Assembly: GCA_049509455.1 (NCBI GenBank)
Contig: JBEKZX010000032.1
Location: 1-17,264 of the forward strand
Origin: Conexivisphaerales archaeon
Lineage (GTDB): Archaea; Thermoproteota; Nitrososphaeria; Conexivisphaerales; DTJL01
Reading direction: 5' to 3'
Length of the DNA: 17,264 nt
Positions within the stretch are counted from its first letter, which is position 1, and every line of letters begins with the position of its first letter. The translations under genes were made by a program, and so were the position numbers. Below the pieces are notes generated by a model that was not told the origin of the DNA, ran no database searches, and was given only the letters and a program-made list of their open reading frames with translations. This document shows, piece after piece, positions 967 to 16,190 of the stretch.

Positions 967-1087
967 ATGTCTTCAGAGTTCAGGAAGGAGGTCTTCTTCG
1001 ACATGGAGACGACGGGGCTCTCCCCCTTCGACTCCCAGATCATCACCATCCAGGTGAGGGTTGACGGCAGGAACATCGTCTGGCCGG
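967..1087 (+). repeat. Direct repeat copy A (121 bp)
   Basis: Manual alignment to 12228-12347 shows 3 substitutions and one C indel. Confidence 0.95.
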
Positions 1088-1123
1088 TGTGGGAGGGCTC
1101 CGAGAGGGAAGTCGTCGATGACC
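967..1123 (+). pseudogene. 5' fragment (about 52 codons) of a DEDD/RNase H-like 3'-5' exonuclease gene
   Basis: MSSEFRKEVFFDMETTGLSPFDSQIITIQV carries the ExoI D-x-E-T-T-G motif. Protein-like sequence ends at WPVWEGSEREVVDDL, where it meets the stop codon of the opposite-strand gene (1124). The rest of ORF 961..1242 is antisense read-through. Confidence 0.75.
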
Positions 1124-1744
1124 TTAGCCACTCGTTGACAGGCGCTCATAAAGCGCCCAAGCGGCGCTCAAGGCTCCGTAAACGACGCCGCCTGTTTCTC
1201 GTCCCCAGGATATCACTAGGGCGTCTCCTGGGTCGGGCGTGACAACTTTCAGGACGTTTTCGGCCAGGTCAGGGTATTCTCTGGAAAGATTCGAGAGCCC
1301 TGGCATCACGAGCTCTCCATCCCTGTAAACGAGCGTCATGGCCCCGTCTGCACCCGCCCTGACAGCCTGATCCCTTTCTGAGAGACCATTTGCCAGTGCT
1401 CCGCCACCTCTGACGCCTACGCCGCAGCTCGTTTTGCCGAGAAAGCCCTCGGACCGAGGCTTGAACAGATAGAAACTTCCCCTTACCTCATCATAAAGGG
1501 TTTTGCCCTTGGAGGTAAGATGACAGCCATTTCGGTCCGCCTTTATCAGTCCTCTTAAAGTGAGCCTCCTCAGCAGAGTGCGGGCGGTCCCTTCACCTAC
1601 GGACAGGCCGGCGGCCAGCTTCTGACGGCCAACGTGGATGTCATCGATTAGGAACAGGGCATAGAGAACATGGGCTATAGTGAATGATGCGCGTGGTCCT
1701 GGCGCTTGTTCCTCCAAGAGCCTCTTCATTTCGGGGAGGAGCAT
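1124..1744 (-). CDS. Archaeal winged-helix protein, DUF4443-like
   Basis: The N-terminal GRQKLAAGLSVGEGTARTLLRRL...GCHLTSKG is a wHTH. The C-terminal GLSERDQAVRAGADGAMTLVYRDGELVMPG matches my recollection of this archaeal family. A GGAGG RBS precedes the ATG. Confidence 0.75.
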   Translation of the reverse strand: MLLPEMKRLLEEQAPGPRASFTIAHVLYALFLIDDIHVGRQKLAAGLSVGEGTARTLLRRLTLRGLIKADRNGCHLTSKGKTLYDEVRGSFYLFKPRSEGFLGKTSCGVGVRGGGALANGLSERDQAVRAGADGAMTLVYRDGELVMPGLSNLSREYPDLAENVLKVVTPDPGDALVISWGRETGGVVYGALSAAWALYERLSTSG

Positions 1745-1828: not shown

Positions 1829-2356
1829 TTGATGAAGAAGCTGGCCATGCTGGCCATGCTGGTCGCTTTGATCGTCGGGACCGACTATGCAATGTTCGCG
1901 CTCCCGAACGTGAAGCTGATGGACATGCTAGTGTTCCTGACCGGCGTGTGGATGGGACCGTATTATGGCGCAGCGGCCGGGGCCCTTTCGTGGATGGTCT
2001 ATGGAACGGTGAACCCGCTCGGCTTCAACTTGGTGACATTGCTCACCGTCGTCCCCATGGAGATGCTTTACGGTCTGACTGGGGGATTGCTTCGAAAGCA
2101 TTTCCTCGTCACCCCCACGGAAATGTTCTGGAAGTTCGGCTTGGTGGCGCTCGGAACCACACTAGCCTACGACCTGGTCACCAATGCCGTGACTGGCGCG
2201 CTCTTCTATCAGAACATCACCATTGGTATCTTGACCGGCATCCCTTTGAGCGCGGTGCACATCTTCTCTAACTTTGTTCAGTTCACAGTCCTAGCGCCTC
2301 TAGTAATTACTGAGACGAACAGGGCCTTCTTCAAGGGGGTCTACAAGATTGTCTGA
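1829..2356 (+). CDS. ECF transporter S component, probably cobalamin-specific
   Basis: A 175 aa protein with about 5-6 hydrophobic segments and the S-component layout (PNVKLMD...G..YGAAAGALSWMVYGTVNPLG). Substrate is inferred from the overlapping DUF4430 gene. Start is TTG 1829 or ATG 1832. Confidence 0.78.
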   Translation: MMKKLAMLAMLVALIVGTDYAMFALPNVKLMDMLVFLTGVWMGPYYGAAAGALSWMVYGTVNPLGFNLVTLLTVVPMEMLYGLTGGLLRKHFLVTPTEMFWKFGLVALGTTLAYDLVTNAVTGALFYQNITIGILTGIPLSAVHIFSNFVQFTVLAPLVITETNRAFFKGVYKIV

Positions 2357-2816
2357 TACCGGATGGAAGGTTCTGGCGGTCGTCCTGCTGGTGGGGCTGA
2401 TCCTAGCTTCATATGGCTCCATCTACTTCCATCAGGAGGTTTCCACATTGCAGTCGGAAAACGACTACCTTCGGAGCAGGCTGGGCTCTGTCAGCGAAAC
2501 CGTCGACGTCGCGGTGAGCTTCGGGAACAGCACCACGCTGTGGTACAACGACACATACGTGCCCGTGGGGTCCTCAGTGTATAATGCCACGTACATCGCG
2601 ACAGGTGGCAGTGTGACGACTCAGCTCTACACCTTCGGCAACGTTACTCAGGCCTTCGTCACTGGGGTCCTGGGAGTTCAGGGCACCTCCACCTCCTATT
2701 GGCTGTGGTACTACTACGATAGCTCGAGCATGAGCTGGGTTGAAGCTCCAGTGGGGGCGGGCGAGTACCTTGCCATGCAGGGCGGGATGTATCTCTGGAA
2801 CTTAACTCAAGGCTAG
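2349..2816 (+). CDS. Membrane-anchored DUF4430 (transcobalamin C-terminal-like) protein
   Basis: N-terminal TM helix and short coiled stretch, then FVTGVLGV...YWLWYYY...PVGAGEY...YLW, typical of DUF4430. It has five N-x-T/S sequons and overlaps the S-component stop by 8 nt. Confidence 0.78.
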   Translation: MSDTGWKVLAVVLLVGLILASYGSIYFHQEVSTLQSENDYLRSRLGSVSETVDVAVSFGNSTTLWYNDTYVPVGSSVYNATYIATGGSVTTQLYTFGNVTQAFVTGVLGVQGTSTSYWLWYYYDSSSMSWVEAPVGAGEYLAMQGGMYLWNLTQG

Positions 2817-3188
2817 CGCCATTTCCGGCGATCCTTGACTGTTCTCTCTGGCCAGCAGCAACCCCGGAACCTCAATTGTGAAGCGACCTGCACTGGAGCA
2901 CGCTTCGCGTCGGTTGCCATCGGGCCTCCCCCCACGATGAAGGGGAATGGAGACCCAAACTAGGGCGAAGCGGAAGGGCGTCTTCCCGATGCGCCATGTC
3001 AGACGAATCCGTGGCATAGGTCACTTGGCGACCATCATGTCGGCCCGGCGGACGGCAGCAGCAGTCTCCAGGGGCGCCTTCAGGGCTGCAAGATTACATA
3101 TAATGGCTACGATTATAACCAATTATATCGCGTCAACGCATCCAATTTATGCAGTTGATTTACGACTATCTAACCTTTCGTGATAATC

Positions 3189-3196
3189 TTTTTAAC
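3189..3196 (+). promoter_or_regulatory. Candidate TATA box of the rdhA operon
   Basis: TTTTTAAC lies 30 nt upstream of ATG 3226, at the end of an AT-rich tract. Confidence 0.5.
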
Positions 3197-3225
3197 CCTA
3201 GCTCATCTATGGAAGACGGATACAC

Positions 3226-4830
3226 ATGAAAGATGTTAGGAAGGATCCAGAGCTAGCCGAATTGTACATGAAAGGGTTCGAAGAGGGCGTTTCTAAGCAC
3301 ATCGTTCACCAGCAGATTTCGAGGAGAACTTTCGTCGCCAGCATGGCAGGACTTGGCGCCTTAGCCGCAACCCTGAGCCTCCCTTGGGTCAACTCCACTG
3401 AGGTCTCCAAGGAGATCGAGAAGATGACAAAGAACGTCCGGGCGCAGCGGACAGTATATGCGTCAACCCCGCCTCCCGCTCCATATACCGCAGGGAAGGG
3501 CACCATGCCTTACACCGTGGTGACCACGCCGCAGAGGTTCAACTACGACCTCCGAAATGGACCAGAGTTCTCACCTTTCGCGACAGACCCTACTACCCTT
3601 CAAGGTCAGTACTACGCTGCTAACCCCGCCGTCCTCCAAAAAGCCGAGGAAAACATGGGGTTGATTCCGACGAAGCTGGCCAACAATGTTGAGGGCTATA
3701 CCTGGCAGGCCCAGGCTTTGGAGACCGGCGCGGGTCTTTTCTTTGACAGCTCAACTACCATTGCAAAGGCCATCTATGGTGGGGCGGCGGTGCCCAATAC
3801 CTATGTGGGGACCGATGAGGGGCCATGGTTGCCGGTACAGGGAGGTTCGTTGGTCCCAGGGTCGAAGTGGCAGGGAAGCACCGCCGAAGCGGCACACAAA
3901 GCAAAGAAGGCTGCCAGATTCCTGGGGGCGGACCTGGTGGGGATCACAAGGTTGAACCAGTCGTGGATCTACTCCCAGAGGAGTGGTCTTCAAATAGAAT
4001 TCCAAGATGTTACGGCGCCGGCGGTGACGTTAACCAATGGCACCCCATCCGCGCTTGTGATTCCCTCAAGTGTGAACAACGCGATCGTCATGGCCTTTGA
4101 GGAAGACTATGGCGTGATGAGGAGCAGGAGCTCTGACCACTTCTCTACTTGGCTAACTCTATCTGGAGTCGCTAGATGCTATTCCAATCAGATGTTTGTC
4201 TCAAACATGGTCGCCGAGTACATCAGGGCTTTGGGGTACAACGCAATCCCCTGCGGAAATGATACTGGCCTGAGTATACCGCTGTCAATAGATGCCGGAT
4301 TGAGCGAAGGGGGGAGACATGGCCTGGGAATCACTCCTGAATTTGGTCCACAGGTGAGATGGGCGAAGGTCCTCACCGACCTCCCGATGGACGAGGACCC
4401 ATGGATGACGTTCGGTGTGAAGGAATTCTGTGATGTCTGTAAGTACTGTGCGAATACGTGTCCGACACTCTCGATTCCCTTGGGCGACATGGCGAGCACG
4501 GCACCGGCCGAATACTACTCGCAAGACGGCGTCCTCAAATGGAGGGTCAACCATACCCAGTGCAACTTCGGTCAATTCGCGGGAGGTTGTTTCTGCACGC
4601 TTTGCCAGCAGAACTGCCCGTGGGGAAGGGGGCCATCGTCCTTCCACAGCGTGGCGAGGTGGACGGCGAAGAACGCCTCAGGCCTCGATTCCGCATTCGT
4701 CTGGCTCGACCAGAACATGGGCTACGAAGACTCGGTCACAGAAAGCTACTGGTGGGACAACATCCCTGTCGAATGGAAGCACGGAACAAGGATCTTCAGG
4801 ACGCCGGAGCGCCCTGAGCATGAGGAGTAG
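3226..4830 (+). CDS. rdhA: Reductive dehalogenase catalytic subunit (corrinoid/Fe-S) with twin-arginine signal
   Basis: SRRTFV (residues 32-37) is followed by a hydrophobic stretch. RdhA-typical blocks are AARFLGADLVGI, AIVMAFEEDY, YS...AEYIRALGYNAIPCGNDTGLSIP and GRHGLGITPEFGPQVRWAKVLTDLP. Fe-S motifs are CDVCKYCANTCP (CX2CX2CX3CP) and C-X10-CTLCQQNCP. Confidence 0.93.
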   Translation: MKDVRKDPELAELYMKGFEEGVSKHIVHQQISRRTFVASMAGLGALAATLSLPWVNSTEVSKEIEKMTKNVRAQRTVYASTPPPAPYTAGKGTMPYTVVTTPQRFNYDLRNGPEFSPFATDPTTLQGQYYAANPAVLQKAEENMGLIPTKLANNVEGYTWQAQALETGAGLFFDSSTTIAKAIYGGAAVPNTYVGTDEGPWLPVQGGSLVPGSKWQGSTAEAAHKAKKAARFLGADLVGITRLNQSWIYSQRSGLQIEFQDVTAPAVTLTNGTPSALVIPSSVNNAIVMAFEEDYGVMRSRSSDHFSTWLTLSGVARCYSNQMFVSNMVAEYIRALGYNAIPCGNDTGLSIPLSIDAGLSEGGRHGLGITPEFGPQVRWAKVLTDLPMDEDPWMTFGVKEFCDVCKYCANTCPTLSIPLGDMASTAPAEYYSQDGVLKWRVNHTQCNFGQFAGGCFCTLCQQNCPWGRGPSSFHSVARWTAKNASGLDSAFVWLDQNMGYEDSVTESYWWDNIPVEWKHGTRIFRTPERPEHEE

Positions 4831-4845
4831 GGGGTACAAGAGAAC

Positions 4846-5082
4846 ATGGCTAAGATAGGCGGAATCATGGTAACGCCCAAGCTGGTGCTGCGAGGAGTAG
4901 TATGGTTGGTCTGGTTCATACTGTTGCTGTTAGCCGCATGGTTCGCGTCCGATGCCTATGCGGAGTATGTACCGACGATGGGCTTGACGGCGACGATATT
5001 CGCTGTCGTCTGGCTGATCCTCGGCATCGGCGTCTTTGTCTTCAACAGGCGAAGCAGATTCTTCAAGAAGAAAGCTCCTTAG
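4846..5082 (+). CDS. Small two-helix membrane protein, putative RdhB-type anchor
   Basis: It starts 15 nt after the rdhA stop on the same strand. It has two long hydrophobic segments (VVWLVWFILLLLAAWFAS; TMGLTATIFAVVWLILGIGVFVF) and a basic tail (RRSRFFKKK). Alternative start is ATG 4867. Confidence 0.72.
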   Translation: MAKIGGIMVTPKLVLRGVVWLVWFILLLLAAWFASDAYAEYVPTMGLTATIFAVVWLILGIGVFVFNRRSRFFKKKAP

Positions 5083-5098
5083 TAACCTAGTCTAGGCT

Positions 5099-5140
5099 GG
5101 TGGTGGCGGGGCAGCTGCCTGCCACCGCCTATTTTTTGTT
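5099..5140 (+). terminator. GC-rich hairpin plus T-tract after the rdhA operon
   Basis: 5099-5110 pairs with 5118-5129 (12 bp including two G-T pairs, 7-nt loop), followed by TATTTTTTGTT. Confidence 0.75.
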
Positions 5141-5194
5141 TCCGTCCTGACATGGTACTGATTAGCCTGCAGAAGATACCTCGATGGATGACGT

Positions 5195-5899
5195 CTAGAG
5201 TGTAACAAGGTAAGCTTCTTCGCTTCGGCTGGGTCCCTGATGGACTACATTTCCGTCCTTGTCGACGATTCTGCTGCCTCCCGTAAGTCCGATGCGCCCC
5301 TTTTGGAACGTGTATGAGCCGACCCAGTTAGACAACACTTTGTGATACCCCGTTCTAGCGGACCCGTATGACGCTGAATCCTTAGGCAGGCTCAGTGCCG
5401 CAGGAACCAGAAGGGCATCTATGCGCCCCTTCAGATCTTCCAGCTCGGACGTGTAACCTGAATCGAGGCAGACCACGGAGGAAATCGCTGTCTTGCCCAC
5501 TCTGACTATGTCAGGACCGCGCTCTCCTCGAGTGAAGGTACCGATCTCGTGGCCGAAGAGGTGCCTTTTCCTGTAACGATAGGCCACCTTCCCGCATGAA
5601 ATGACAACGCTGCAGTCATACAGAAGCCCCTTCTCCTCCATAGCTTCGCCTGAGACTATGGTGTTATTGTGCTCGGCAGTAAAATCTCTTAGGGCTTCCA
5701 CATGCTTGCCCCCAACTTGTTTGATCGCCCGCAAAGCTTGGTCGCGGGTCCAAGCTCGGTAGCCTATGTTCGCCATCTCTGGGAGGACTATGAAGTCTGC
5801 ATCCGCTATCGAGCGCGCAAGGGCCAAGCATCTACCCATCGCTCCCTTTCCGTCACCCTTCATAAGCCTTGGCTGCACAAAACCGAAGGAGAGTCCCAT
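5195..5899 (-). CDS. Carbon-nitrogen hydrolase (nitrilase superfamily)
   Basis: The Glu-Lys-Cys triad is present in family context: VLPEM, YRKRHLF, VVCLD. The C-terminal GGSRIVDKDG is also typical. Confidence 0.88.
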   Translation of the reverse strand: MGLSFGFVQPRLMKGDGKGAMGRCLALARSIADADFIVLPEMANIGYRAWTRDQALRAIKQVGGKHVEALRDFTAEHNNTIVSGEAMEEKGLLYDCSVVISCGKVAYRYRKRHLFGHEIGTFTRGERGPDIVRVGKTAISSVVCLDSGYTSELEDLKGRIDALLVPAALSLPKDSASYGSARTGYHKVLSNWVGSYTFQKGRIGLTGGSRIVDKDGNVVHQGPSRSEEAYLVTL

Positions 5900-5914
5900 A
5901 GGTTGGACCTCATC

Positions 5915-6574
5915 CTAAGAATTGAAGACGACGACCACGGAGAGAATGGGGTAGGTGCCATTGCTTAACTCAGCCAGAGACCCCACGGCAATCCCCTCGT
6001 TCAGGGTGAGATTATAGCACACCATCGCCTTGGTTCCTTCTCCCAATATTGGCGAAAGCCGCCCAGCCAGGGCCTCTGGAGGGTAATCTTCGTCGCAGAG
6101 AATGACGAGATGTTTCCCGTTCTCATAGGCCATCTTCATGAAGCCGAAGGACTCCTCTCTGTCTGCCACCTTGTGGAAGGACACGATGACGCTATCCTCT
6201 AGACTGATGCGGGCTTTGGCGGCTGCGACCTGAACGGAGCTTATCCCAGGCACCAGTTCCACCTCGAACCCTGAAAACGGCTCCAAGACCTTGTTGATGG
6301 CGGACGATACCGTAACATCACCTGTCCTCAGGACGCAGACTGTTAGCCCCCTGGTCCTGGCTTCCTCTGCGACTTCATTCGCGACTTCCCAGACGTTGGC
6401 CTCGTTCTGGACGCGCGGCGATGCCTTTAGGGGCAAGCCCTTGACAACCTGGATGGCCTCGGTCCAGCCTACGACTAGGTCAGCTGAAGTTATGATTCGT
6501 TTGGCCCCATCGGTGAGCATGTCTGGAGCTCCCGGCCCCACTCCCACTACGAATAGCTTCGGCAACGAGGCCAT
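5915..6574 (-). CDS. cbiE: Tetrapyrrole methylase, CbiE-like
   Basis: VVGVGPGAPDMLT (GxGPG), TGDV in place of the usual GDP, ELVPGISSVQVAAA, IVSFH, and YNL in place of ENL. The length and motifs best fit the CbiE subfamily. Confidence 0.72.
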   Translation of the reverse strand: MASLPKLFVVGVGPGAPDMLTDGAKRIITSADLVVGWTEAIQVVKGLPLKASPRVQNEANVWEVANEVAEEARTRGLTVCVLRTGDVTVSSAINKVLEPFSGFEVELVPGISSVQVAAAKARISLEDSVIVSFHKVADREESFGFMKMAYENGKHLVILCDEDYPPEALAGRLSPILGEGTKAMVCYNLTLNEGIAVGSLAELSNGTYPILSVVVVFNS

Positions 6575-6575
6575 T

Positions 6576-6596
6576 CCTCCGTCTCATGGACTTAAG
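6576..6596 (-). promoter_or_regulatory. RBS and candidate TATA for the cbiE-nitrilase operon
   Basis: On the minus strand, CCTTAAG lies about 20 nt upstream of the ATG and GGAGG lies immediately before it. Confidence 0.45.
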
Positions 6597-6773
6597 GTTA
6601 TGCTTGTGATCTATCTCATAACTGCTTCCATGATGTTGGCAAGCATCGAATTGCGATGGAACCTAGGCTGGATGACCGCCACGTAACGAACAGTAGCCCC
6701 TTCCGCTAAGACGAAGCCAATAAGTGCAAACGTAAGGGCAAAGCCAAATTAATCAGCATTCAGCTGAGTTAGA

Positions 6774-7355
6774 ATGACCATGTCCAGCTTCAAAGGCCTA
6801 AACAGGGTTGGGCCTTCATTGATGCGCAGAGACGAAGCTGGTTCCCCTGCGCCACTCAAGATGGCGCTGCTCATTGTCGACCCCATCAGGGGCATGATGG
6901 AACTTCGACGTGGAACGGGGCAGATACTGCCTAACGTGGCTGCGTTGGCAGACGCTGCTCGGGAAAGAGGCATTCCTGTCTTCTACGTGACCCATGTTAT
7001 GAGGGACGGTAGAGATTCCGAAATCTTGGCAGAGCTGAGGCCTGGCAAGGGGGACATCAAAGTGGACAAACGGGACTACAGCGCGTTCAGAGGGACGCGA
7101 CTGGAGGAAATGCTCAAGATGAAGGGGGTGACGACGATCGTAATCGCGGGGATCTATTCCGACCTCTGCGTCCGTTATAGTTCGGAGGACGCTATCAGGC
7201 TGGGCTTCAAGGTTATCGTCCCGCTCGATTGCATCAAGAGCTACCAGGTGGAAGAGTCAGAGGCCACCGTTAAGCTGCGTGCTTTGGAAGGCCTGATTCC
7301 AACTGATTCGGCCTCTTTGATTGAAGCCGATTTCGACGTAAGCAGACTTGCGTGA
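6774..7355 (+). CDS. Isochorismatase/cysteine hydrolase family protein
   Basis: The Asp-Lys-Cys triad is in ALLIVD, DKRDYSAF and GIYSDLCV. The true start may be ATG 6822 or 6861. Confidence 0.88.
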   Translation: MTMSSFKGLNRVGPSLMRRDEAGSPAPLKMALLIVDPIRGMMELRRGTGQILPNVAALADAARERGIPVFYVTHVMRDGRDSEILAELRPGKGDIKVDKRDYSAFRGTRLEEMLKMKGVTTIVIAGIYSDLCVRYSSEDAIRLGFKVIVPLDCIKSYQVEESEATVKLRALEGLIPTDSASLIEADFDVSRLA

Positions 7356-7659
7356 ATGAATGAACCCAAGGTTCCGTGACGTTCAGCGGAGGCTGAAAGT
7401 CGGGTTTCTTGCCCCTTTGGGGTCGTTGAATCACAACTAGTCTGCCACGTCCTGCAAGAATGGGAATCGAGAGAGATCTTCACACCTGCAGTTGCGGCAA
7501 GGACGCTCTACCGTCGGAATCGTTCATCGGGTGAATTGCTTGGCCTAATCAATGACACTGTGGCAGCAAGGGCCCCTGTCGAGTGCAGCTGTATCTCGTC
7601 CCGTCCTGCGAAAGGTAGATTAGAGTTGGAGTATAGCGACATCCTGGTGGAATGCTTCG

Positions 7660-9063
7660 AAGGTTGCGCTCGTGGTCCCGCCTCTCCCTGGCGGAGTTCT
7701 ACGTGATTCTGTCTGCGTCTCGCCACCATTGAACGTGACATATTTAGGGGCGGTCTTGAGGTCCGGTGGTCACGAAGTCGCAATCGTCGACTCTCCAGCC
7801 TCACGGCTTGACGAACTCAAAGCAGCGGAGAAAGTGAAGTCTTTCGGGCCCGACCTAGTCGGCATATCTTCACTTTCGCAGACCTACAACAGTTCCCTAA
7901 AAGTTGCACACGCCATCAGGGAGATCCTTCCAGATGTTCCCATTTCCACAGGCGGTCCACATGCGACCTTCTTCGACCGTCAGACGGCACAACACCCCGA
8001 TGTTGACATAGTCGTACGTGGAGAAGGAGAGGCCACCATCGTGGACTTGGCGAACCAGCTTGAAGCGGGACATGGGTTAGATGCCGTCCTCGGAATCACC
8101 TACAAGGAAGGCGCCAGAGTCATCTCGAACGGGGATAGACCTTTCATACAGGACTTGGACTCCTTGCCTTTTCCCGCTTACGATCTTATTCCCCTCTCTC
8201 TGTATGGAGCCTTGCGAGGAAGGAAGATCTTCCTCCTGCTCTCAAGCAGAGGGTGTCCCTATGGATGCGGTTTCTGCATTATGTATAAGATGGATGGCAA
8301 CAGGGTCCGCGCTAGATCTCCAAAGAACGTTGCGGACGAAATCGAGCTTCTGATCAGCCTTGGCGCCGATTCCTTCTCCTTCTGTGACGAGACTTTCACC
8401 TTCAATGCGAAAGGGGTAGAAGGCATTTGCGACGAAATCCTAGCCCGTCGACTCGAGATACCTTGGGACTGTCAAACGCGCTCAGACTTGCTCAAGCCAT
8501 CGTTGCTAGAGAAGATGAGGAAGTCTGGCTGTGAGCTCATCTGCTTGGGCGTGGAATCAGGCTCACAGCGGATACTCGATAGAATGAAGAAGAGGACAAC
8601 CGTCGCGATGAACCTGGAAGGCGTTCGCGCGATCAAGAAGGCCGGAATTGCCGTTTCGACGAGCTTGATTATTGGTTATCCGGGGGAGGACGCGGAGAGC
8701 CTGGAAGAGACCATCAGGTTCGTCAAGACGACATCGCCGGACATAGCCTATCTCAACATAGCTACGCCATTTCCCGGGACGGAGTTTTACGATGAGGTTT
8801 CCTCTTCGGGGCTTATTCAGGAATTCGAATGGCAGAAATATGACATAACGATGCCCGTCTTTGAGACGACTACGATGAAAAAGGAAACATTGCTTAGGGC
8901 ACGGCGGTCCTTCTACAACTCTTGGTACTCTCTTGGCTACGTCCTTAGGAACCTCACAAAGGAGAATTTCTACAATAGGACTATGGGCTGGTTCGCGCTG
9001 AATTACATCAAATGGCGGTTTACGAACTCTCTTAAGAAGGGCGTATTCCGAAGCTTCAGATGA
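7660..9063 (+). CDS. B12-binding domain radical SAM enzyme (class B methyltransferase-like)
   Basis: N-terminal Rossmann-type B12 domain (KVALVVPP...PDLVGIS...GGPHAT...VRGEGE), SRGCPYGCGFC (CX3CX2C), GVESGSQRIL and IIGYPGE. Homology begins at 7660, upstream of the ORF-track GTG at 7672. Confidence 0.92.
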   Translation, partial: KVALVVPPLPGGVLRDSVCVSPPLNVTYLGAVLRSGGHEVAIVDSPASRLDELKAAEKVKSFGPDLVGISSLSQTYNSSLKVAHAIREILPDVPISTGGPHATFFDRQTAQHPDVDIVVRGEGEATIVDLANQLEAGHGLDAVLGITYKEGARVISNGDRPFIQDLDSLPFPAYDLIPLSLYGALRGRKIFLLLSSRGCPYGCGFCIMYKMDGNRVRARSPKNVADEIELLISLGADSFSFCDETFTFNAKGVEGICDEILARRLEIPWDCQTRSDLLKPSLLEKMRKSGCELICLGVESGSQRILDRMKKRTTVAMNLEGVRAIKKAGIAVSTSLIIGYPGEDAESLEETIRFVKTTSPDIAYLNIATPFPGTEFYDEVSSSGLIQEFEWQKYDITMPVFETTTMKKETLLRARRSFYNSWYSLGYVLRNLTKENFYNRTMGWFALNYIKWRFTNSLKKGVFRSFR

Positions 9064-9145
9064 GATATCTGACCCAGGTCAGACCAAACCATACTCAGCA
9101 ACTTGGCGAAAGGGTGTTGCTCTATTTATTTTACCCCACAGCATA

Positions 9146-9154
9146 CTTATAAAT
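9146..9154 (+). promoter_or_regulatory. Candidate TATA box for the NrdJ-like gene
   Basis: CTTATAAAT lies about 31 nt before TTG 9186. Confidence 0.55.
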
Positions 9155-9185
9155 GAAATGACGCCGAAATTGGCAGGAACGCGAC

Positions 9186-10775
9186 TTGACTGGTCGTACG
9201 CGGTTCTTCCCTCCTTTAACTAAAAGCGCGTACGACCACAGCCTGTCGCGATACGTGCTGAAGGATGGCGCCGGCGTACCAGTTGAATCTTATCAGGAGA
9301 TGTTCCGACGCGTGTGCGATTATGCTCTGAAACGTGAGGGCAGTGGCGCCGGCGGAGAGGTCGTCGCAGATTTTCGCAACTTGATAACGGGGTTAGTGTT
9401 CCTTCCCGGCACCCCTGTGTTGGTCGGTGCAGGCGTCGAAGGTGCCCAGCTCTTTGCAGCGGTGGCGTTCCCCTTCAGGCCCTTCGCCCTTACTCGCTCC
9501 TTGCTGGTCACGTCTCAGCGTGGGGGCGCTGGGACCTCCTATTGTATCAGGTCGCGTCACGGCGAACAATGGGATCGAATACGGTATCGCATTAGTCAAC
9601 TTGACAAGGCCACTCGATCCGTTAAACAGGGCGGGTGCAGGCAAGGCTGTAGCCTCGCGGTCATGAGGGCTGATGACCCAAACGTAGACCAATTCGTTAT
9701 GGCTAAGCTGGATAGGAACCTAGCGCCTAACACGGGCACCAGTGTTGCCCTCAATGATTCGCAAATGGAGGAACTGGCTGGGGGAGGTGACGAGGATCTC
9801 TTTTCTAGGATGACTGAAGCCATTCATGAAGTCGGCGAGCCTGGTGTCATATTCAGTGATGAAGTCAATAGGGAAAATCCAATCTCGCATTTAGGCCATA
9901 TTGGCGCTTCCAGCGCCTGCGCAGAAGTCCCTCTGATGGATTATGAAGCGTGTCAGTTGGGGGCTGTCGACGTAAGCAAGCTCATCTATGATGGTGATTT
10001 CGACTTCGACCTCCTGAAAAGGGCCACCAAATCGGCCGTGAGGTTCTTGGACGACATGATCGATTTGACGTCATACCCTGACGAAAGGGTTCGATGTGCG
10101 ACCATGTCGTCTAGGAAGATGGGGGTTGGAGTCATGGGCCTGGCTGACCTGTTCGCTTCACTGGAACTGCAGTACGGAGAGGATGATTCTGTCCAGCTGT
10201 GCCGTGAGATAGCCTCCACAATGCGCCTCGCAGCAATGGAAGAAAGCAAGACGTTGGCCGAGGAACGCGGGTCATGCCCTGCGTTGGAGGAAATCGGAGT
10301 GATGAGGAGGAACGCAACGTTGCTCGCCATCCCGCCCTCAGGTTCGATAAGCCTGATTGCTGGCTGCTCAAGCGGGATAGAGCCCTATTTCTCCTTTCCA
10401 GTGACGATGCATCGGGTCGAAGGTACAGGCCGGCTCGAAGTTAGCCGAGTCCTTGTGGAGCGTCTCAAGCGTTTAGGATTTCGAGTTTCCGCGGAGGGTC
10501 TCCTAGACGTGCCGACGTCGTCGCGCTTGGGCTTGGAGCTCCGGAGTGCTCATCACATCTTCAGGACAGCCACTGAATTGGCCCCAGAACGGCACTTGGC
10601 GATCGCCAAGGCATTTCAGACATACTTCGACAATTCCGTCTCCAAAACGGTCGCGCTGCAAGAAGAGTCCTCTCCAGAAGAAGTAAGCAAGATAATTGTC
10701 CAAGCGTGGAGGATGGGCTTGAAAGGAATTTCGATTTTCAGGCCTGCGAGCGGTGAAAGGCTGATCTACAGTTGA
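9186..10775 (+). CDS. Divergent class II (adenosylcobalamin-type) ribonucleotide reductase homolog
   Basis: NrdJ blocks are recognisable throughout: FLPGTP, KQGG, GEPGVIF, DYEACQLG, AVRFLDDMID, RKMGVGVMGLAD, RNATLLAIPPSGSIS, SSGIEP, FQTYFDNSVSKT and KGISIFR. There is no class I Tyr-Tyr pair. Catalytic positions are altered (see findings). Confidence 0.88.
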   Translation: MTGRTRFFPPLTKSAYDHSLSRYVLKDGAGVPVESYQEMFRRVCDYALKREGSGAGGEVVADFRNLITGLVFLPGTPVLVGAGVEGAQLFAAVAFPFRPFALTRSLLVTSQRGGAGTSYCIRSRHGEQWDRIRYRISQLDKATRSVKQGGCRQGCSLAVMRADDPNVDQFVMAKLDRNLAPNTGTSVALNDSQMEELAGGGDEDLFSRMTEAIHEVGEPGVIFSDEVNRENPISHLGHIGASSACAEVPLMDYEACQLGAVDVSKLIYDGDFDFDLLKRATKSAVRFLDDMIDLTSYPDERVRCATMSSRKMGVGVMGLADLFASLELQYGEDDSVQLCREIASTMRLAAMEESKTLAEERGSCPALEEIGVMRRNATLLAIPPSGSISLIAGCSSGIEPYFSFPVTMHRVEGTGRLEVSRVLVERLKRLGFRVSAEGLLDVPTSSRLGLELRSAHHIFRTATELAPERHLAIAKAFQTYFDNSVSKTVALQEESSPEEVSKIIVQAWRMGLKGISIFRPASGERLIYS

Positions 10776-10916
10776 GCGATGTCCAGTCGCGTCATGGTCG
10801 GTCGTGTATCGGGTGGGTACGAAATACTTGTGCATCCTGGCCCGCATGGTCCTGTCGAAGACGCTAGGCGACGGTGTCCGGTCCGTACTGACTGCACGAG
10901 ATCCCTTGGCCCTGGG

Positions 10917-11936
10917 TCAAGCGGGGTACGCGCCACATACTCGACAATAGTTCTTTCCATGCTCGACTCCGCTTCCGCAGCATCGGCACTTCTTCTCCAG
11001 GTCCGGGTAGGCGGGTTTGTCCCCAAACTTGCTAACATAGTACCGATAGCATATCAGCTGTTCCTTGTTCCTAAGGGCAAGTCCGTTGCGGGCCAACCTC
11101 TCCTTCTCCTTGGCGAACTCCCCGTCGGAGATCTCCTCATCAGCGAGGACTTCGGCATAAGTCGTCCCCGTTCCCGCCTCTATGGGGGCCTTGGGCCTCC
11201 AAAGTATCTCGTCGGGAAGAAGGCCCCTATGCGCTTGCCGCACGATCCATTTCCCCCACCGCTGCCCGTTGACTTCTCTCACCTTCAGATCGGCTGGGAC
11301 GCTCTTGGAGAACTGTAGGAAATCGGCGTGCAGGGCCGGGATATCGACCTCGATGCCCACGTACCTTCCCAAATCTCTTGACGTGAACGACATGACGGCC
11401 CACATAGCCTCAAGCGCCTTCTGCAGGTCCCCGTAATCGGTCATGTCCACGAAGAAGCTGTACCCAGCATAGAGCTCGTCGAAAGCATCCCCTGTCAGCA
11501 CCCTGCGCATGCCGTGATCCTTCGCCAATCTGAGCGCCAGGTAGATGGAGGCGCTGTTCCTGACTTCGACTGGGTCGAAGGTATGGAGGGCTTCGATGAC
11601 GTGATGTGAAGCGTCCGTGTACTCTTCAAGGTCGAACTCATGGAAGAAGTGTTCCATCCCCAGCAGTGACGCCACCCTCTTTGCGTAGGGCGGGTCTGAT
11701 GGGCTCCCCATGGTGAAGGCGACCGTGGCCGCCTTAGGCCTAGAACTGCGTGTTGCCGAATATGAAACAACGCTCGTGTCAAGGCCGCCAGAAAGCAGTA
11801 TGCCGTCGGCCTTGGCTTCAGCCGTAGCTTGGTTGAGGATTGTCCTTAGAAGTGCGGAACATCTACGTAGACTCGATTCGTCCGGCAGGCCCACGAAATG
11901 TGGATGTATCCTGTGCGCAGATAAGTCTTTAATCAC
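10917..11936 (-). CDS. Asparagine-synthase-like ATP pyrophosphatase (synthetase domain only) with C-terminal zinc ribbon
   Basis: LLSGGLDTS PP-loop, VLTGDAFDELYAGY and GKWIVR...LPDEILWRPKAP. It ends with CRCC...CRVCGAYP. There is no N-terminal Ntn glutaminase domain. Confidence 0.85.
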   Translation of the reverse strand: MIKDLSAHRIHPHFVGLPDESSLRRCSALLRTILNQATAEAKADGILLSGGLDTSVVSYSATRSSRPKAATVAFTMGSPSDPPYAKRVASLLGMEHFFHEFDLEEYTDASHHVIEALHTFDPVEVRNSASIYLALRLAKDHGMRRVLTGDAFDELYAGYSFFVDMTDYGDLQKALEAMWAVMSFTSRDLGRYVGIEVDIPALHADFLQFSKSVPADLKVREVNGQRWGKWIVRQAHRGLLPDEILWRPKAPIEAGTGTTYAEVLADEEISDGEFAKEKERLARNGLALRNKEQLICYRYYVSKFGDKPAYPDLEKKCRCCGSGVEHGKNYCRVCGAYPA

Positions 11937-12227
11937 CCGGGATGCCCCACAGCCTACTTCTTGTCAACTGCATTCGTCCAGCCTGTCAGTTGGCTTCACC
12001 GCACTCACTTCTCTCGATCGGGAATTCACACTAGGGAGTTGAGGCCCGCCAAGCAGGGCAGGGCGCTTGGTGTTAGAGTCACCCGACTCGGACGGTCAGG
12101 TTCTATCTGTTATCTGGATTCCGCCGGTGTCCCTGTCCTTGGGGTCCGAACCGGTGATACTGAACCCTCTACACTGACCATGTGGTGCAGGCTTAACTAA
12201 CTATCCGCTCTATTATTAGTGAAAGGT

Positions 12228-12347
12228 ATGTCTTCCGAGTTCAGGAAGGAGGTCTTCTTCGATATGGAGACGACGGGGCTCTCCCCTTCGACTCCCAGAT
12301 CATCACCATCCAGGTGAGGGTCGACGGCAGGAACATCGTCTGGCCGG
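12228..12347 (+). pseudogene. Direct repeat copy B: frameshifted 5' fragment of the same exonuclease gene
   Basis: Near-identical to 967-1087 from the ATG onward. CTCTCCCCTTCG has one C fewer than copy A, which shifts the frame after TTGLSP. Similarity stops at TGGCCGG. Confidence 0.9.
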
Positions 12348-12379
12348 GATTGGAGCATAGGATGCTATGTTTAAGCCGG
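12342..12379 (+). repeat. Hairpin element copy 1
   Basis: GGCCGGGATTGGAGCATAG-GATG-CTATGTTTAAGCCGG. The first 28 nt are 26/28 identical to 13398-13425. Confidence 0.8.
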
Positions 12380-12443
12380 GGCGGATTCGTGGCTATTTCG
12401 GCACTAGACTGCCGTTCTCCGCCAACTCGGACATTGATTCTAA

Positions 12444-12473
12444 CCGAGTTTGAAGCATAGGATACTGTGCTTT
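12444..12473 (+). repeat. Hairpin element copy 2 (more diverged)
   Basis: CCGAGTTTGAAGCATAG-GATA-CTGTGCTTT is 21/26 identical to 12344-12369 and offset from it by exactly 100 bp. Confidence 0.65.
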
Positions 12474-12577
12474 TGTCTTCAGACTCTGGCTTCCCGCTTT
12501 CCAGAGGCCAATGCGAGATGAGGTCTCAATCCTTATTACTTCGTCCTCGCCACTCTCATAACAGAAGGTGTCTTCGG

Positions 12578-12679
12578 ATGTTCGTGGTGTGGGCTGACTT
12601 CTCCAGGCTCCGTATCGTCCTTCTCCTCATGACCGTGATCGCCGTCGTGGTGCTTCTCGTAACCGCTTTCTTGAAATGA
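12578..12679 (+). CDS. Possible 33-aa single-helix membrane peptide
   Basis: MFVVWADFSRLRIVLLLMTVIAVVVLLVTAFLK; this is the hydrophobic tail of ORF 12467..12679. No homology was recognised. Confidence 0.35.
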   Translation: MFVVWADFSRLRIVLLLMTVIAVVVLLVTAFLK

Positions 12680-12817
12680 AGCCCCTTATCCCAGGCGACT
12701 CTAAACACGCCGTCGCTGTCAAGGTCTGTGTAAGCTGAGATCCATGCTACGGGGAAGAATCATCAGCTCATCGAGCCGGGACCATTGGGTCAAGATGCCA
12801 ACCCAAGTTACGGTGAA

Positions 12818-13264
12818 TCAGGCCTCAAGAGCCTTCTTGAGGTTCTCTAGCATCTTGTAGTCTGCCTTTTCCAGTTCCCTCCGGGCCACCAACGCCTCGA
12901 ACAATTTGCCCAGAACAGAATATTTCATTTCATAGTCTATAGAGTATGTCGCCTTGGTTCCCTTGGTCGTGGGTTCAAGGGTAAATGAGTTGGTCGAATT
13001 GAGGGCGCGCCTGCGTGTTCCCACGGCGCGCATCGTCATCCTCTGGTTCTTGACAAGTTCGGTTACTCTGATGTCCCACTCTCCTCCTTTGTTCCTGCCC
13101 ACGCCAACCACATGCGCAGTTGAGCCGACTGCAATGGGTCCATCTGAGGTCCACTTGATCGTTGTCCACTCCTTCCATATGTCATTCATCTTCTCGCTCA
13201 TCAAGAAAGCAAAGACTTCCTCGGGAGTCGCTAGGATTTCGACAGTCGCAGTTGACTCTGTCAT
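12818..13264 (-). CDS. SRPBCC/START-like (polyketide cyclase-type) ligand-binding protein
   Basis: TVEILATPEEVFAFL...GPIAVGSTAH...RVTELVKNQRM...FTLEPTTKGTKATYSIDY...LENLKKALE is the typical SRPBCC pattern. Confidence 0.88.
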   Translation of the reverse strand: MTESTATVEILATPEEVFAFLMSEKMNDIWKEWTTIKWTSDGPIAVGSTAHVVGVGRNKGGEWDIRVTELVKNQRMTMRAVGTRRRALNSTNSFTLEPTTKGTKATYSIDYEMKYSVLGKLFEALVARRELEKADYKMLENLKKALEA

Positions 13265-13270
13265 GCAGTT

Positions 13271-13305
13271 ACCTCATGATCCTATTTGCGCGCTGAATTT
13301 AAAAG
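13271..13305 (-). promoter_or_regulatory. RBS and TATA for the SRPBCC gene
   Basis: On the minus strand, CTTTTAAAT (13305-13297) is followed by GAGGT (13275-13271) before ATG 13264. Confidence 0.6.
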
Positions 13306-13397
13306 ACTTCCTGAGCCTGGTTCCGCAAGCTCCGCGTTTGGCAGTCCTTCGCTCCTTTGGTGGAGCCACCTACACCCTGAGCGTGGTACCAGATTCA

Positions 13398-13435
13398 GGC
13401 CGGGAAGGGAGCATAGGATGCTATGCTCAAACCAG
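13398..13435 (+). repeat. Hairpin element copy 3
   Basis: GGCCGGGAAGGGAGCATAG-GATG-CTATGCTCAAACCAG has perfect 8-bp arms GAGCATAG/CTATGCTC (13409-13428). It overlaps the stop codon of the surface-protein gene. Confidence 0.8.
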
Positions 13436-14720
13436 ATTCTGATGACGTCGCAGCCTGCGCTCGACGAGTACGGCCATGAGCACGCCGATGAAGACTGTGA
13501 AGAACGGGAGGGACGCCGGGAACTCCGGTATCGGAGTTGCCGTTGATATTTCTACCAGGTGGGGTCCAGGGGAGAGCTGGAACACTATCGTCGCGTAGGT
13601 CGCGTTCTGGGAGATCGTGTAGGATTGGTTCTCGCCGTCGACGCTGAGGAGGAGCGGCGCTGGAAGGAGCCCGGCCGGCACCGCGACGGACGTCTGGATC
13701 GCGCCAGCAGGCGGCCTATGGGTTCGAAATGAAATCAGGCGGGAGCCCTGGTCGAAGGTCAAGTTGGTCACCCATGCATTCGCCTCCACTGCCACGGCGG
13801 GGGCCTGGAGCAGATAGGTGCGGTCAGGCAGTGTCAGCAGGGCGTTCCGCACTGTCAGCAGGCTGTCAAAGAAGAGGCCTTGGGCCAATTGCTGCTGGGC
13901 TAGGGCAAGCGCAGGGTTCCCGGGGCCTAGGATGGGCGTCGCCCACTGCATCATGAACTCCGGATTTAAGGCCGCCATGAATTCGTCCGGTGAAAGCACG
14001 ACCCCACCCGCACGTTGGAGGTCCCCTGCGAACTGTGGCGTCTCCGCAAAGCTCTGACCCGGCTGAACCAGGGAAATCTGTATCGCAGCAAAGACCGGAA
14101 AGTTCAGGCTTTCATCCCTAGTCGTGTTGATGTAATCGATGTACAGATTCGTGGAGTTGTAGTAGGTCATCTTGATTTGGATCCCCTGTGAAAGATCGCC
14201 TAAGGTGAAATTCACCGTGAAGTCTTGGAATTTGCCAGGTTGATCGAAATCGCTGGACGAGACGGTTCTCTGGGCCAACGTAACAGGCGACGTCGAATTC
14301 TCGGTCACCAGAAGTGAGGCGACCGGGGCCGTGGGTTGGTTATCGGTGACTTTCAACCGATATACCGCGGTGTAGTTGCCCGGCGCGAGGGACATCCACA
14401 CTGGACCGTAAGTGCCGAAAGTTGGAGCTCCCTGGGAGAAGAGGACAGATTGACCGCTGAGGGCATCCGTATCATTGACTACGATCCCGCCCTGCCACGG
14501 ATAGGAAGCCATGTCGATGAAGACTTGATCGGATCTGCGGTTGAGAAGGTCATCTATTATCCACGCGCCGTTGGTCATGTTCAATGCATAACTCTGGCGC
14601 ACTCCAGGCGTGGGAACCCCCCCATACTCGAGGTTGAGGCCCCAATTGAATCCATAGTCGCTCACGATGGCACCTAGGTAGCCGGAGTCGTGTAGGTACT
14701 CGTAGTAGAGGGGCGCCACA
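13427..14720 (-). pseudogene. N-terminally truncated PEF-CTERM cell-surface glycoprotein
   Basis: The C-terminus TPIPEFPASLPFFTVFIGVLMAVLVERRLRR is PEF + TM + basic tail (PEF at 13528-13520). It has many N-x-S/T sequons and a beta-sandwich-like insert. There is no signal peptide, and the ORF-track start (GTG 14746) lies inside the upstream oxidoreductase sequence. Confidence 0.75.
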
Positions 14721-15809
14721 TCCTCCGCAACAATACGAGTATTCACGGATCCGATACATCTCTATGAAATCGAGCCCTTTGATCGCACGTAGAATCTGAC
14801 GTGGTGGATCATAGACACCGTTCACCCCTCGGTTGATCTTTTTGGGGGGTTCGGTGTAGGTCATGCAACCCCGGGTGACTTTTTGCTCCCCTTTCCATGT
14901 GAGGGGCGGTTCGCTCTGACGTCCAAGGTAACATGGATCGTGATAGGTCACCTTTCGCCTGACAGGATTGGGCAGGCGCACACGGTCATCAGCTATCAAC
15001 TGCGCCAAGAACTCGGTGATATGCAGGACTTTGGCCTTGGGCGCCCTCGCATACTCAGGATACTTGGAACGGAAAGCTCCCAGGCACGACCCGGACAGGA
15101 CGACGACCGTCTCGATCTTCATATCGTCGAGCATATCCACCAGATGGTTTGCTGTGTTCGCAAAGACGTCTCTGTGTCCTGTCCAGTAAGCTGGCAGCCC
15201 GCAGCTCGTTTCATTCTCTCGCAGGATGCCGAAATCCACCTCTGCCTGCTTCAGAAGGATGGCGCACTTTCGGGCTACTTCTGTGGCTCCCGGGTCGCAT
15301 CGCATGCAACCCGTGAATAGGAGAATCGGCGCTTTTTGGGCCGGCAATATCTTCAATCCCAGGTCCTTTGCCCAACTTAGGCCCTGATCCTCTGTCATTC
15401 CCCCTGGATTTCCATATTCTTGAAGATTCTTTATCATGGACCGATGGGCGGGCAAAGCAAATCCTTCGTCCACAATATGCTCTCTGAGCGCCATGTTCAC
15501 TGCGTGGCGTTCCGCCTCCATGATGAATTTGCAGGAGACATCGCAGAGTCCGCATGCAGTGCAGGCGAACGTGATATCGGCAAGCGCCTGATCGACCTGG
15601 ATGCGGCCATTGACCAATGAGAGCGCCATGATGCTCTTGCCTGACCCTGAATATCCATGGAAATGGTACAAGTGGCTGGCTGGGCAGCCATCAGCATACT
15701 TTGGGTTCAGTACCGTTGGTAGCGGCACCATTTTGCACAAAGAGCATCTAATGCACTTCTGCATCTCCGGTTCCAAATCCTTGAGTCTAGACAAGGACAT
15801 GCTGTTCAC
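14721..15809 (-). pseudogene. C-terminally truncated HdrD/GlpC-like (Fe-S)-binding CCG-domain oxidoreductase
   Basis: CIRCSLC...CP and CTACGLCDVSC are ferredoxin motifs, followed by CCG-domain blocks LFTGC, SCG, VTYHDPCYLGR and YCCGG. After YCCGG (residue 363) the frame becomes unrelated read-through, so the end of the second CCG domain is missing. Confidence 0.82.
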
Positions 15810-16190
15810 TTCCTGGCTACGTGTTAAGCAACAGGATTCTGAGCTATATATGGAATGCCTGCCCGAGCAGAGGCCTTCGACAATGGCTTCAAGGCCAGGG
15901 TCGTGTCCGGAGGCAAGTGGTGGCTGATCCGAACATTGGAGGATCAGGGTACTGTGTTAGAAAGGGCGGTATTAGTACCTATTACGGGTTCAAGTCTCAT
16001 AAATAATGACATGATATATTAAGAATGGTGCGAACCTTTATCAATATACCGGCAGCATGGTTTACTAAACTTGTAATACTCCTACGTTCGTTTCATCTCA
16101 GGTCTCTTCGAGCCATTCTTTGTGCCACTTGGTGTGATAGTCTGTCTCTGGGATGATTACTCGGAGACCCTTGCTTGTCCATAGGTAATG

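Follow-up and report, generated by a model that had tools for sequence, protein, structure and literature searches.

A candidate two-gene unit for an outward-facing, membrane-associated reductive dehalogenase in a Conexivisphaerales archaeon

The window analysed here, a 17,264-bp stretch that is the entire contig C67 of the genome G000 of a Conexivisphaerales archaeon, carries a reductive dehalogenase (RDase) gene, rdhA, followed directly by a small open reading frame (ORF) for a membrane protein, which we refer to as rdhB-like. Conexivisphaerales are deep-branching, non-ammonia-oxidising Nitrososphaeria (former Thaumarchaeota). On balance, and with a confidence somewhat above an even chance, we favour the view that rdhA and the rdhB-like gene form a two-gene unit encoding a corrinoid/[4Fe-4S] reductive dehalogenase that is associated with the membrane and faces outward. 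The features of this unit, by window position, are as follows (Tat, twin-arginine translocation; aa, amino acids; TM, transmembrane):

3182..3195, plus strand: candidate archaeal TATA-like box (GATAATC/TTTTTAA), read from the sequence, about 31-44 nt 5' of the rdhA ATG
3226..4830, plus strand: rdhA, encoding the RdhA catalytic subunit P0001 (534 aa, intact ORF), assigned by TIGR02486, a PceA match, Foldseek and an AlphaFold2 model
3226..3393, plus strand: Tat-type leader, residues 1-56, in which S-R-R-T-F-V (32-37) stands between an extended n-region and an h-region of weak hydrophobicity
4429..4620, plus strand: two [4Fe-4S] motifs, residues 402-413 and 446-465, found by regular expression on the translation
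4618..4725, plus strand: two-helix region near the C terminus (residues 465-500), equivalent to PceA alpha17/alpha18 by alignment to 8q4h
4747..4827, plus strand: clade-specific C-terminal tail W-W-x-N-x-P-V-x-W-x-H-G-T-R … R-P-x-H-E, from alignment A2
4846..5082, plus strand: rdhB-like gene for P0002 (78 aa, two-TM hairpin), assigned by topology, context and a profile match
5099..5139, plus strand: terminator-like GC hairpin (12 bp) plus T-run, read from the sequence, closing the two-gene unit

That the larger gene encodes a member of the RdhA family is very nearly certain. The protein matches the NCBIfam model TIGR02486 with 192.5 bits (curated cut-off 160.35) over model positions 1-313 of 314, the match spanning residues 214-500. 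The Pfam model PF13486 gives 32.1 against a cut-off of 24.3, a weak match to the last quarter of the model alone, because the N-terminal half of the protein is divergent. Among solved structures compared by sequence, PceA of Sulfurospirillum multivorans (4uqu) is the best match (E 1.5e-46), followed by Desulfitobacterium hafniense PceA (3e-44), NpRdhA (1.7e-20) and QueG (~1e-5). Alignment to S. multivorans PceA places Y319, N345 and R378 on the catalytic residues Y246, N272 and R305 (the Tyr and Arg are Y337 and R396 in D. hafniense PceA), Y319 being the "YS" tyrosine and R378 the arginine of GPQVRWAKV; all three are at least 90% conserved in an alignment of 65 homologous sequences (A1). The first cluster motif reads CxxCxxCxxxCP and the second C-x8-C-x-CxxCxxxCP, and the eight cluster cysteines are invariant or almost so in the same alignment. 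The original prediction, which described a complete RdhA with an SRRxF signal, both Fe-S motifs, the YS tyrosine and the GPQVRWAKV arginine, is accurate residue by residue.

The fold agrees with this assignment. The AlphaFold2 model has a predicted template modelling score (pTM) of 0.80 and a predicted local distance difference test score (pLDDT) above 90 in the core, and its best Foldseek match is D. hafniense PceA (8q4h_A, from the PceA2B2 complex; E 2e-23 over 518 columns). The top matches are all PceA entries (E ~1e-22 to 1e-23), with many S. multivorans PceA structures behind 8q4h, and NpRdhA (~1e-15) and QueG (~2e-5) both follow behind PceA. QueG identity was rejected (TIGR00276, 23.8 bits against a cut-off of 200), so that by profile as well as by structure the protein does not group with QueG, an outcome that the original prediction had named as speaking against it. 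A catabolic enzyme of the NpRdhA type, which is cytoplasmic, has no signal peptide and carries a C-terminal NAD(P)H/flavin reductase module, was rejected as well, given the Tat leader, a C terminus about 70 residues past the second cluster motif and the weaker NpRdhA matches.

Upstream of the gene, the T/A-rich part of the candidate box lies at 3189-3195, about 31-37 nt ahead of the rdhA ATG. As read by eye, an archaeal-type promoter is plausible, and it would yield an rdhA mRNA that is leaderless or has a very short leader. The protein itself is likely to be exported by the Tat pathway, as predicted from its N terminus. After S32-R33-R34-T-F-V follow about 24 uncharged, weakly hydrophobic residues (Kyte-Doolittle hydropathy, KD19, ~1.5), which form the sole hydrophobic segment of the protein and come after the twin-arginine (RR) motif. 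With its 31 residues (window 3226-3321), the n-region is of unusual length. A leader with QQISRRGFIKAMAGLGA is also present in a clade member on another contig, L116, with 39% identity across the first 55 residues; its N-terminal fragment reads …K-G-L-E-Q-G-M-G-E-H-I-K-R-Q-Q-I-S-R-R-G-F-I-K-A-M-A-G-L-G-A…. Since this relative has the same leader, the long n-region is real, and it may be a chaperone-binding site. The host genome encodes TatC and four TatA-family matches. NuoH, TatC and one TatA gene lie inside about 4 kb on another contig of the genome (C107:2307-6467).

The membrane gene that the original prediction placed behind rdhA is a 78-aa two-helix ORF that starts 15 nt past the rdhA stop, after a GGGGG(T) run. 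Its hydrophobic helices lie at residues ~13-35 and 45-66, with an acidic loop between them (D-A-Y-A-E-Y-V). Given the K/R clusters at both ends of the protein, both termini are predicted to be cytoplasmic and the loop to face outward. A word-seeded search of 5.8 billion proteins returned no homologues save one 96% variant. In the strain that carries this variant the reading frame is uninterrupted; 4 of the codon changes are synonymous and 3 non-synonymous, too few for a decisive dN/dS. Relatives surfaced only through the genomic context of related rdhA genes. On L116, a 92-aa 2-TM ORF 5' of rdhA is 33% identical to the small protein over 55 residues (E 5e-6) and shares with it the loop motif F-A-S…(Q/A)-E-Y-(E/V)-P-T. 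On a Nitrososphaeria contig, L111, a 75-aa 2-TM ORF 3' of rdhA is 30% identical (E 7e-4). In addition, 2-TM ORFs behind the Tat-RdhAs of Bathyarchaeia, Solibacteraceae and Aminicenantes genomes align in register. When the profile of this 2-TM set was compared by hhalign with TMH2-TMH3 of canonical three-helix RdhB, the probability was 92.4% (E 5e-7), and the alignment puts E40 of the small protein on the invariant Glu of canonical RdhB. The VcrB family (PF27193) has a weak precomputed match on the L116 small ORF that was not reproduced by hmmscan. A complex prediction for RdhA (residues 56-534) with the small protein scored 0.01 (mark 0.32) and was not used as evidence. Taken as a comparison of sequences and profiles, these data indicate that the small protein is probably an RdhB-type partner. 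The respiratory layout claimed for this locus (Tat motif, small membrane ORF, TatC and TatA in the host) is present. The cautious interpretation given in the original prediction, of an archaeon that may reduce organohalides outside the membrane or of a respiratory reductase for another acceptor, is supported by the analysis.

The C terminus of RdhA bears on how electrons could reach the enzyme. In the cryo-EM structure of PceA2B2, the menaquinone pocket is built by PceB TMH2-3 together with PceA alpha17/alpha18, and the pocket residues named for D. hafniense PceA are S486, W487, K489, H495, A498, R499, A511, D515 and Y520 (PMC10624902). By alignment to 8q4h (chain offset 48), these map to P465, W466, R468, H474, A477, R478, F491, D495 and Y500. 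Seven of the nine are identical or conservative (R468 for K), P465 and F491 being the two that differ, and the AlphaFold2 model has helices at 472-483 and 485-498. The helices of the small protein correspond to exactly these two pocket-forming helices of PceB, and such a minimal two-helix RdhB would help in the search for the smallest anchor that still functions. The host genome also encodes NuoH, suggesting a membrane electron-carrier pool.

Searched exhaustively with phmmer, 1.84 billion representatives yielded 1805 relatives of RdhA, of which P0156 alone spans most of the protein (41% identity, residues 94-533). Related loci were gathered with a 7-sequence query alignment, and a maximum-likelihood tree of 98 sequences was computed with support from the SH-like approximate likelihood ratio test (SH-aLRT). 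The protein forms its own clade with P0156 and P0158 (SH-aLRT 99), and the C-terminal tail, of low pLDDT, is common only to these three (alignment A2). The clade lies within a supported group of 18 rows (SH-aLRT 95) that also holds the second Tat-RdhA found across the genus (C115 type), a Bathyarchaeia gene with Tat and B gene (L036) and bacterial genes with Tat and a 2-TM RdhB, and it lies outside the large Tat-less cluster of Bathyarchaeia and Thorarchaeota. The phylogenetic placement that the original prediction had proposed as a check thus groups the enzyme with those having Tat and RdhB, apart from the Tat-less archaeal cluster. Its statement that most archaeal RdhAs are without this layout holds too: in only 1 of 36 Bathyarchaeia relatives (in GTDB genomes) does an RR motif go together with a small membrane ORF a short way 3' of rdhA, and Asgard RDases are without Tat signals (Manoharan et al. 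2019, PMC6737245).

Within the class, the TIGR02486-type model scores above cut-off in 5 of 301 sampled Nitrososphaeria genomes, namely the present one (two copies), three congeners and G077. The copy described here was found only in this species, the three congeners having the other type alone. This second Tat-RdhA (contig C115; L012 4216-5604) is 462-471 aa long across orthologues, has the motif TRRNLIK and, of four congeners searched, is conserved in three (G001-G003; L003, L004, L005) besides the present genome. Both proteins bear a Tat signal and fall in the same supported group, but they are only 36-38% identical, and the second, unlike the first, has no adjoining small 2-TM ORF. Its gene adjoins one for a membrane-anchored PD40/TolB-like beta-propeller protein in the three congeners, and molybdate-transport-like genes in the present genome. 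A second respiratory-type operon of the class is found on L111 (1932-5072; CAYTRT010000006.1, uncultured Nitrososphaeria archaeon), in the order Tat-RdhA, the P0002-like ORF, a poly-ferredoxin (NapG-like) and a membrane Fe-S protein of the NapH-like Fer4_5 type. The NapG/NapH-like pair could be a quinol-dehydrogenase module. The rdhA of this operon is split across two frames (frameshift or assembly error). On L116 (360-2199; GCA_012974965.1), the order is B-A, with the RdhB-like ORF upstream of rdhA, and rdhA has a stop codon and changes frame between residues ~200 and 209 (pseudogene or sequencing error).

Under the favoured reading, RdhA would acquire its cofactors, a corrinoid and two Fe-S clusters, while still in the cytoplasm, and the folded protein would be exported by the host TatA/TatC via its SRRTF leader. 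Outside, it would dock through its two C-terminal amphipathic helices on the RdhB-like hairpin of 78 aa and two helices. A membrane carrier, probably quinol bound in a PceAB-like four-helix pocket, would supply electrons, and these would pass through the two clusters to cob(I)alamin, which would reduce the carbon-halogen bond, with the proton coming from Y319 and R378.

Several findings weigh against this reading. The short Tat-signal models of Pfam and NCBIfam gave no match on the RdhA leader, and no evident AxA or signal-peptidase cleavage site is seen in it, so that the leader could possibly act as an uncleaved signal anchor. RdhAs of the TM-fused type carry 1-3 N-terminal TM helices in place of Tat and RdhB (Atashgahi 2019, PMC6797604). 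The small protein matches no RdhB family model (Pfam, NCBIfam, hmmscan), and its loop departs from the EXE motif: E-Y-V keeps the first Glu, E40, and has Val for the second, where L116 has E-Y-E and bacterial 2-TM relatives have E-A-E and E-F-E. On the side of electron supply, the menaquinone genes of the host stay below cut-off (MenA 78.8/102, MenB 140/343, UbiE/MenG 90/158), and MqnA/MqnD were not found above cut-off in the genome. Three [NiFe]-hydrogenase-like genes are present; the one locus examined, the largest, is of the cytoplasmic HdrA/MvhDGA type, and no donor module is therefore evident. An uptake-type hydrogenase was rejected for this largest gene as it is Mvh/HdrA-linked. In the window, no rdhC, rdhT, rdhK or NapGH-like genes flank rdhA and the rdhB-like gene (Pfam/NCBIfam). 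Finally, the enzyme is at most 41% identical to any of the 1.8 billion representatives, and its terminal branch measures 1.07 against a median of 0.16, a length that makes its exact position in the tree uncertain.

The electron-supply findings bear on an alternative in which an exported enzyme acts on organohalides in the service of detoxification or co-metabolic halide removal, with no energy coupling and with the small ORF as a mere tether. With no uptake hydrogenase, NapGH or RdhC adjoining the operon, a hydrogenase locus of the cytoplasmic Mvh/HdrA type and quinone biosynthesis not demonstrable in the genome, this account has points in its favour. However, the PceAB quinone-pocket residues are kept in RdhA and the RdhB-loop Glu in the small protein, NuoH suggests a pool of membrane electron carriers, and the Tat-exported RDases verified by experiment are all respiratory (PMC6737245). 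We consider detoxification without energy coupling unlikely.

The neighbouring genes are as follows:

1124..1744, minus strand: DUF4443/PH0730-like winged helix-turn-helix regulator (Pfam), divergent from the ECF-S/DUF4430/rdhAB side
1829..2356, plus strand: ECF-S-component-like membrane protein (weak ECF_trnsprt match)
2349..2816, plus strand: membrane-anchored DUF4430-like protein, its gene overlapping the ECF-S-like gene (25%, E 1e-5, to the L024 member)
5915..6574, minus strand: CbiE-type corrin methyltransferase (TIGR02467, 98.9 bits against a cut-off of 92.9)
6774..7355, plus strand: isochorismatase-family hydrolase (Pfam; 43% identical to the L024 gene)
7672..9063, plus strand: B12-binding radical SAM enzyme (Pfam; 52% identical to the L024 gene)

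The window also codes for a class II, B12-dependent-type ribonucleotide reductase (Pfam). From the family annotations, the ECF-S/DUF4430 pair would be a candidate corrinoid-uptake module, and we counted this cofactor context (CbiE, the ECF-S/DUF4430 pair and the other B12 enzymes near rdhA) as support for the favoured reading. Much of the context is repeated on L024, a contig of 8.4 kb and 44% GC from JGI 3300033156 that carries P0156, the closest full-length RdhA relative. It has rdhA, isochorismatase, B12-radical SAM, DUF4443, DUF4430 and ECF-S-like genes, and continues with a polyprenyl synthase and a UbiE-type methyltransferase. The two ECF-S-like proteins are 37% identical (E 1e-20) and the DUF4443 regulators 31% (E 2e-18), and the second member of the pair on L024 is a clear DUF4430 protein. 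The neighbourhood is thus shared despite a very different base composition.

Given the very long branch and the identity of at most 41% to its relatives, the substrate of the enzyme may have shifted. An exported corrinoid reductase for a non-halogenated acceptor, perhaps tied to the isochorismatase/B12-radical SAM pair, would also be in line with the clade-specific tail, the conserved long leader and a neighbourhood (rdhA, isochorismatase, B12-radical SAM, DUF4443, ECF-S and DUF4430) that is common to L024 though the RdhAs are just 41% identical. We nevertheless give such a change of substrate a low probability: none of the Tyr/Arg/Asn residues used in carbon-halogen reduction is lost, the match to the RDH model exceeds the curated cut-off, and the shared neighbours plausibly serve B12 supply or are unrelated, lying on the opposite strand or being separately transcribed. 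L116, in addition, keeps rdhB and rdhA together, on a 2.9-kb contig that is too short to show other neighbours.

The archaeal origin of the contig is well supported. The genome (2.05 Mb in 140 contigs; estimated completeness 95.5%, contamination 2.4%) contains a full archaeal small-subunit (SSU) rRNA (1476 bits) and an unsplit RpoB that, at 90% identity, clusters with a protein labelled "Conexivisphaerales archaeon". McrA was not found in it; the host is therefore not a methanogen, and that identity was ruled out. On the contig itself, both the DUF4443/PH0730-like and a TrmB-type regulator are archaeal-type (Pfam), and an HdrD-like gene (14714-15814) is 80-96% identical in four of four congeneric genomes. 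An identical RdhA in unchanged gene order occurs in six independent assemblies (3 JGI, 2 ENA, 1 Logan), and the DNA of rdhA and the rdhB-like gene has 0 nucleotide differences across these assemblies, which come from different samples. Samples with this contig are JGI 3300018023, 3300018024, 3300038418 and 3300039412, ENA ERZ27250170 and ERZ27250189, and SRR13201612. Just past ~13.4 kb the assemblies part ways, one ENA contig having a 1053-aa GxGYxYP protein and the others a 439-aa ORF. The composition of the contig fits the bin at its lower end (GC 54.6% versus 58.2%; tetranucleotide r = 0.914, bin range 0.72-0.99, median 0.967).

The latter correlation and the many bacteria among the nearest RdhA relatives are what could be said for bacterial DNA mis-binned in an archaeal metagenome-assembled genome (MAG). 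Against this stand the HdrD-like gene of the same contig, kept in all four congeners, the archaeal-type regulators, the paralogues that the regulator/ECF-S/DUF4430 module has elsewhere in the genome and in congeners, and a contig structure assembled six times independently, and we regard mis-binning as extremely improbable. A chimeric or bacterial contig was rejected on the archaeal SSU rRNA and RpoB, the regulators, the six identical assemblies, the congeneric HdrD-like gene and the composition, bearing out the original prediction of archaeal neighbours and context.

About 12 kb of the window (~2820-14700) finds no counterpart at the DNA level in four congeners, and two direct repeats bracket 11.26 kb that includes rdhA and the rdhB-like gene, with an HNH gene adjoining the bracketed stretch:

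967..1095, plus strand: direct repeat, left copy, ~129 nt, a 5' fragment of an RNase H/DnaQ-like gene (FDMETTGL)
12228..12355, plus strand: direct repeat, right copy, 95-97% identical and frameshifted

These features indicate that the unit probably belongs to a segment which is specific to the species and was possibly acquired; the repeats may mark an acquired or rearranged island. Fragments like the 129-nt repeat are also found on other contigs of the genome and in congeners. The DUF4443, ECF-S-like and DUF4430-like module (1124-2816) is multi-copy in the genus, its copies having 66-68% DNA identity, with a paralogue in the same genome at C13:39810-41275. Partly palindromic repeats of ~39 nt (core GGAGCATAGGATGCTATG) lie at 12339-12377, 12439-12477 and 13395-13433, and a 40-nt element at 15964-16003; both recur in intergenic DNA of the window, of many contigs of the genome and of G004.

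It could be argued that the operon is cargo of a recently acquired island and is silent or decaying in its host. Its position inside a ~12-kb stretch missing from four congeners, between the 129-nt repeats of gene fragments and beside the HNH gene, would fit, as would the low-end GC and tetranucleotide values and the frameshift-split rdhA genes on L111 and L116. In the present locus, however, neither ORF is broken and no functional residue is missing, the DNA is identical in six assemblies of different samples, the 96% variant strain retains an open small ORF, and the host has long maintained another Tat-RdhA, one also conserved in congeners. We therefore hold silent or decaying cargo to be very unlikely.

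To our knowledge, only bacteria have been shown to respire organohalides, and no archaea are known to do so; we also know archaeal RdhA homologues mostly as Tat-less cytoplasmic proteins of no established function. For the enzyme described here, the case for an organohalide substrate is evenly balanced, and energy conservation by the system, while conceivable, appears doubtful to us. It is a speculative and on present grounds rather unlikely proposition that this archaeon respires natural organohalides with a minimal RdhA and two-helix RdhB on the outer side of its membrane. The L111 operon, with its Tat-RdhA, P0002-like ORF and NapG/NapH-like proteins, points to archaeal organohalide respiration too. 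If true, organohalide respiration would have its first archaeal example and the former Thaumarchaeota would gain a new type of anaerobic energy metabolism, and a confirmed function would place organohalides among the electron acceptors open to archaea in anoxic soils. The locus provides a complete and intact candidate, with its host identified, for an outward-facing, membrane-tethered archaeal dehalogenase.

Among known systems, the menaquinol:organohalide oxidoreductase PceA2B2 of D. hafniense TCE1 (8q4h, PMC10624902) resembles the archaeal unit in the Tat leader, the two [4Fe-4S] motifs, the catalytic Tyr/Arg and a C-terminal two-helix region with the W/K(R)/H/A/R/D/Y pocket residues, and both loci encode a small membrane partner directly downstream. 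The sequence identity between the archaeal enzyme and D. hafniense PceA is merely ~25-38%, the archaeal partner has two helices and E-Y-V where PceB has three helices and EXE, and the archaeal locus, unlike that of D. hafniense, is without pceC or pceT, in a host without recognisable menaquinone biosynthesis genes. S. multivorans PceA (4uqu), the best sequence match, has its Y246, N272 and R305 all kept in the archaeal enzyme, but the N-terminal 210 residues cannot be aligned with it by sequence, and the archaeal protein has an extra C-terminal tail. The Tat-less RdhAs of Bathyarchaeia and Asgard archaea (PMC6737245) have the same core and are ~35-42% identical; they differ in a length of ~340-420 aa or a fusion to ferredoxin, and have neither an RR motif nor a small membrane protein encoded next to them.

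Among marine RDases, 95% are without both Tat and RdhB (PMC12660952). Tat together with RdhB, the latter with two or three helices, is described as the mark of prototypical respiratory RDases in the available passages of Han et al. (2025, PMC12219181), which also report predicted RdhA and RdhB genes of the quinone-dependent type in MAGs of four archaeal phyla from cold seeps and call for validation. In the light of these passages, the layout is not unprecedented, and the original prediction overrated its novelty. The cold-seep genes have the same predicted architecture as the unit described here and are likewise unvalidated. They are marine, and the passages name Thermoplasmata and Heimdallarchaeia and, within that text, not Nitrososphaeria. 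Our own literature search found no report linking an RDase to Conexivisphaerales, Thaumarchaeota or Nitrososphaeria. Unlike the cold-seep genes, the present rdhA comes from Conexivisphaerales and sits in its own long-branch clade with two metagenomic relatives only. With its small partner, it is a new and highly divergent case of a known layout, in a lineage for which none had been described.

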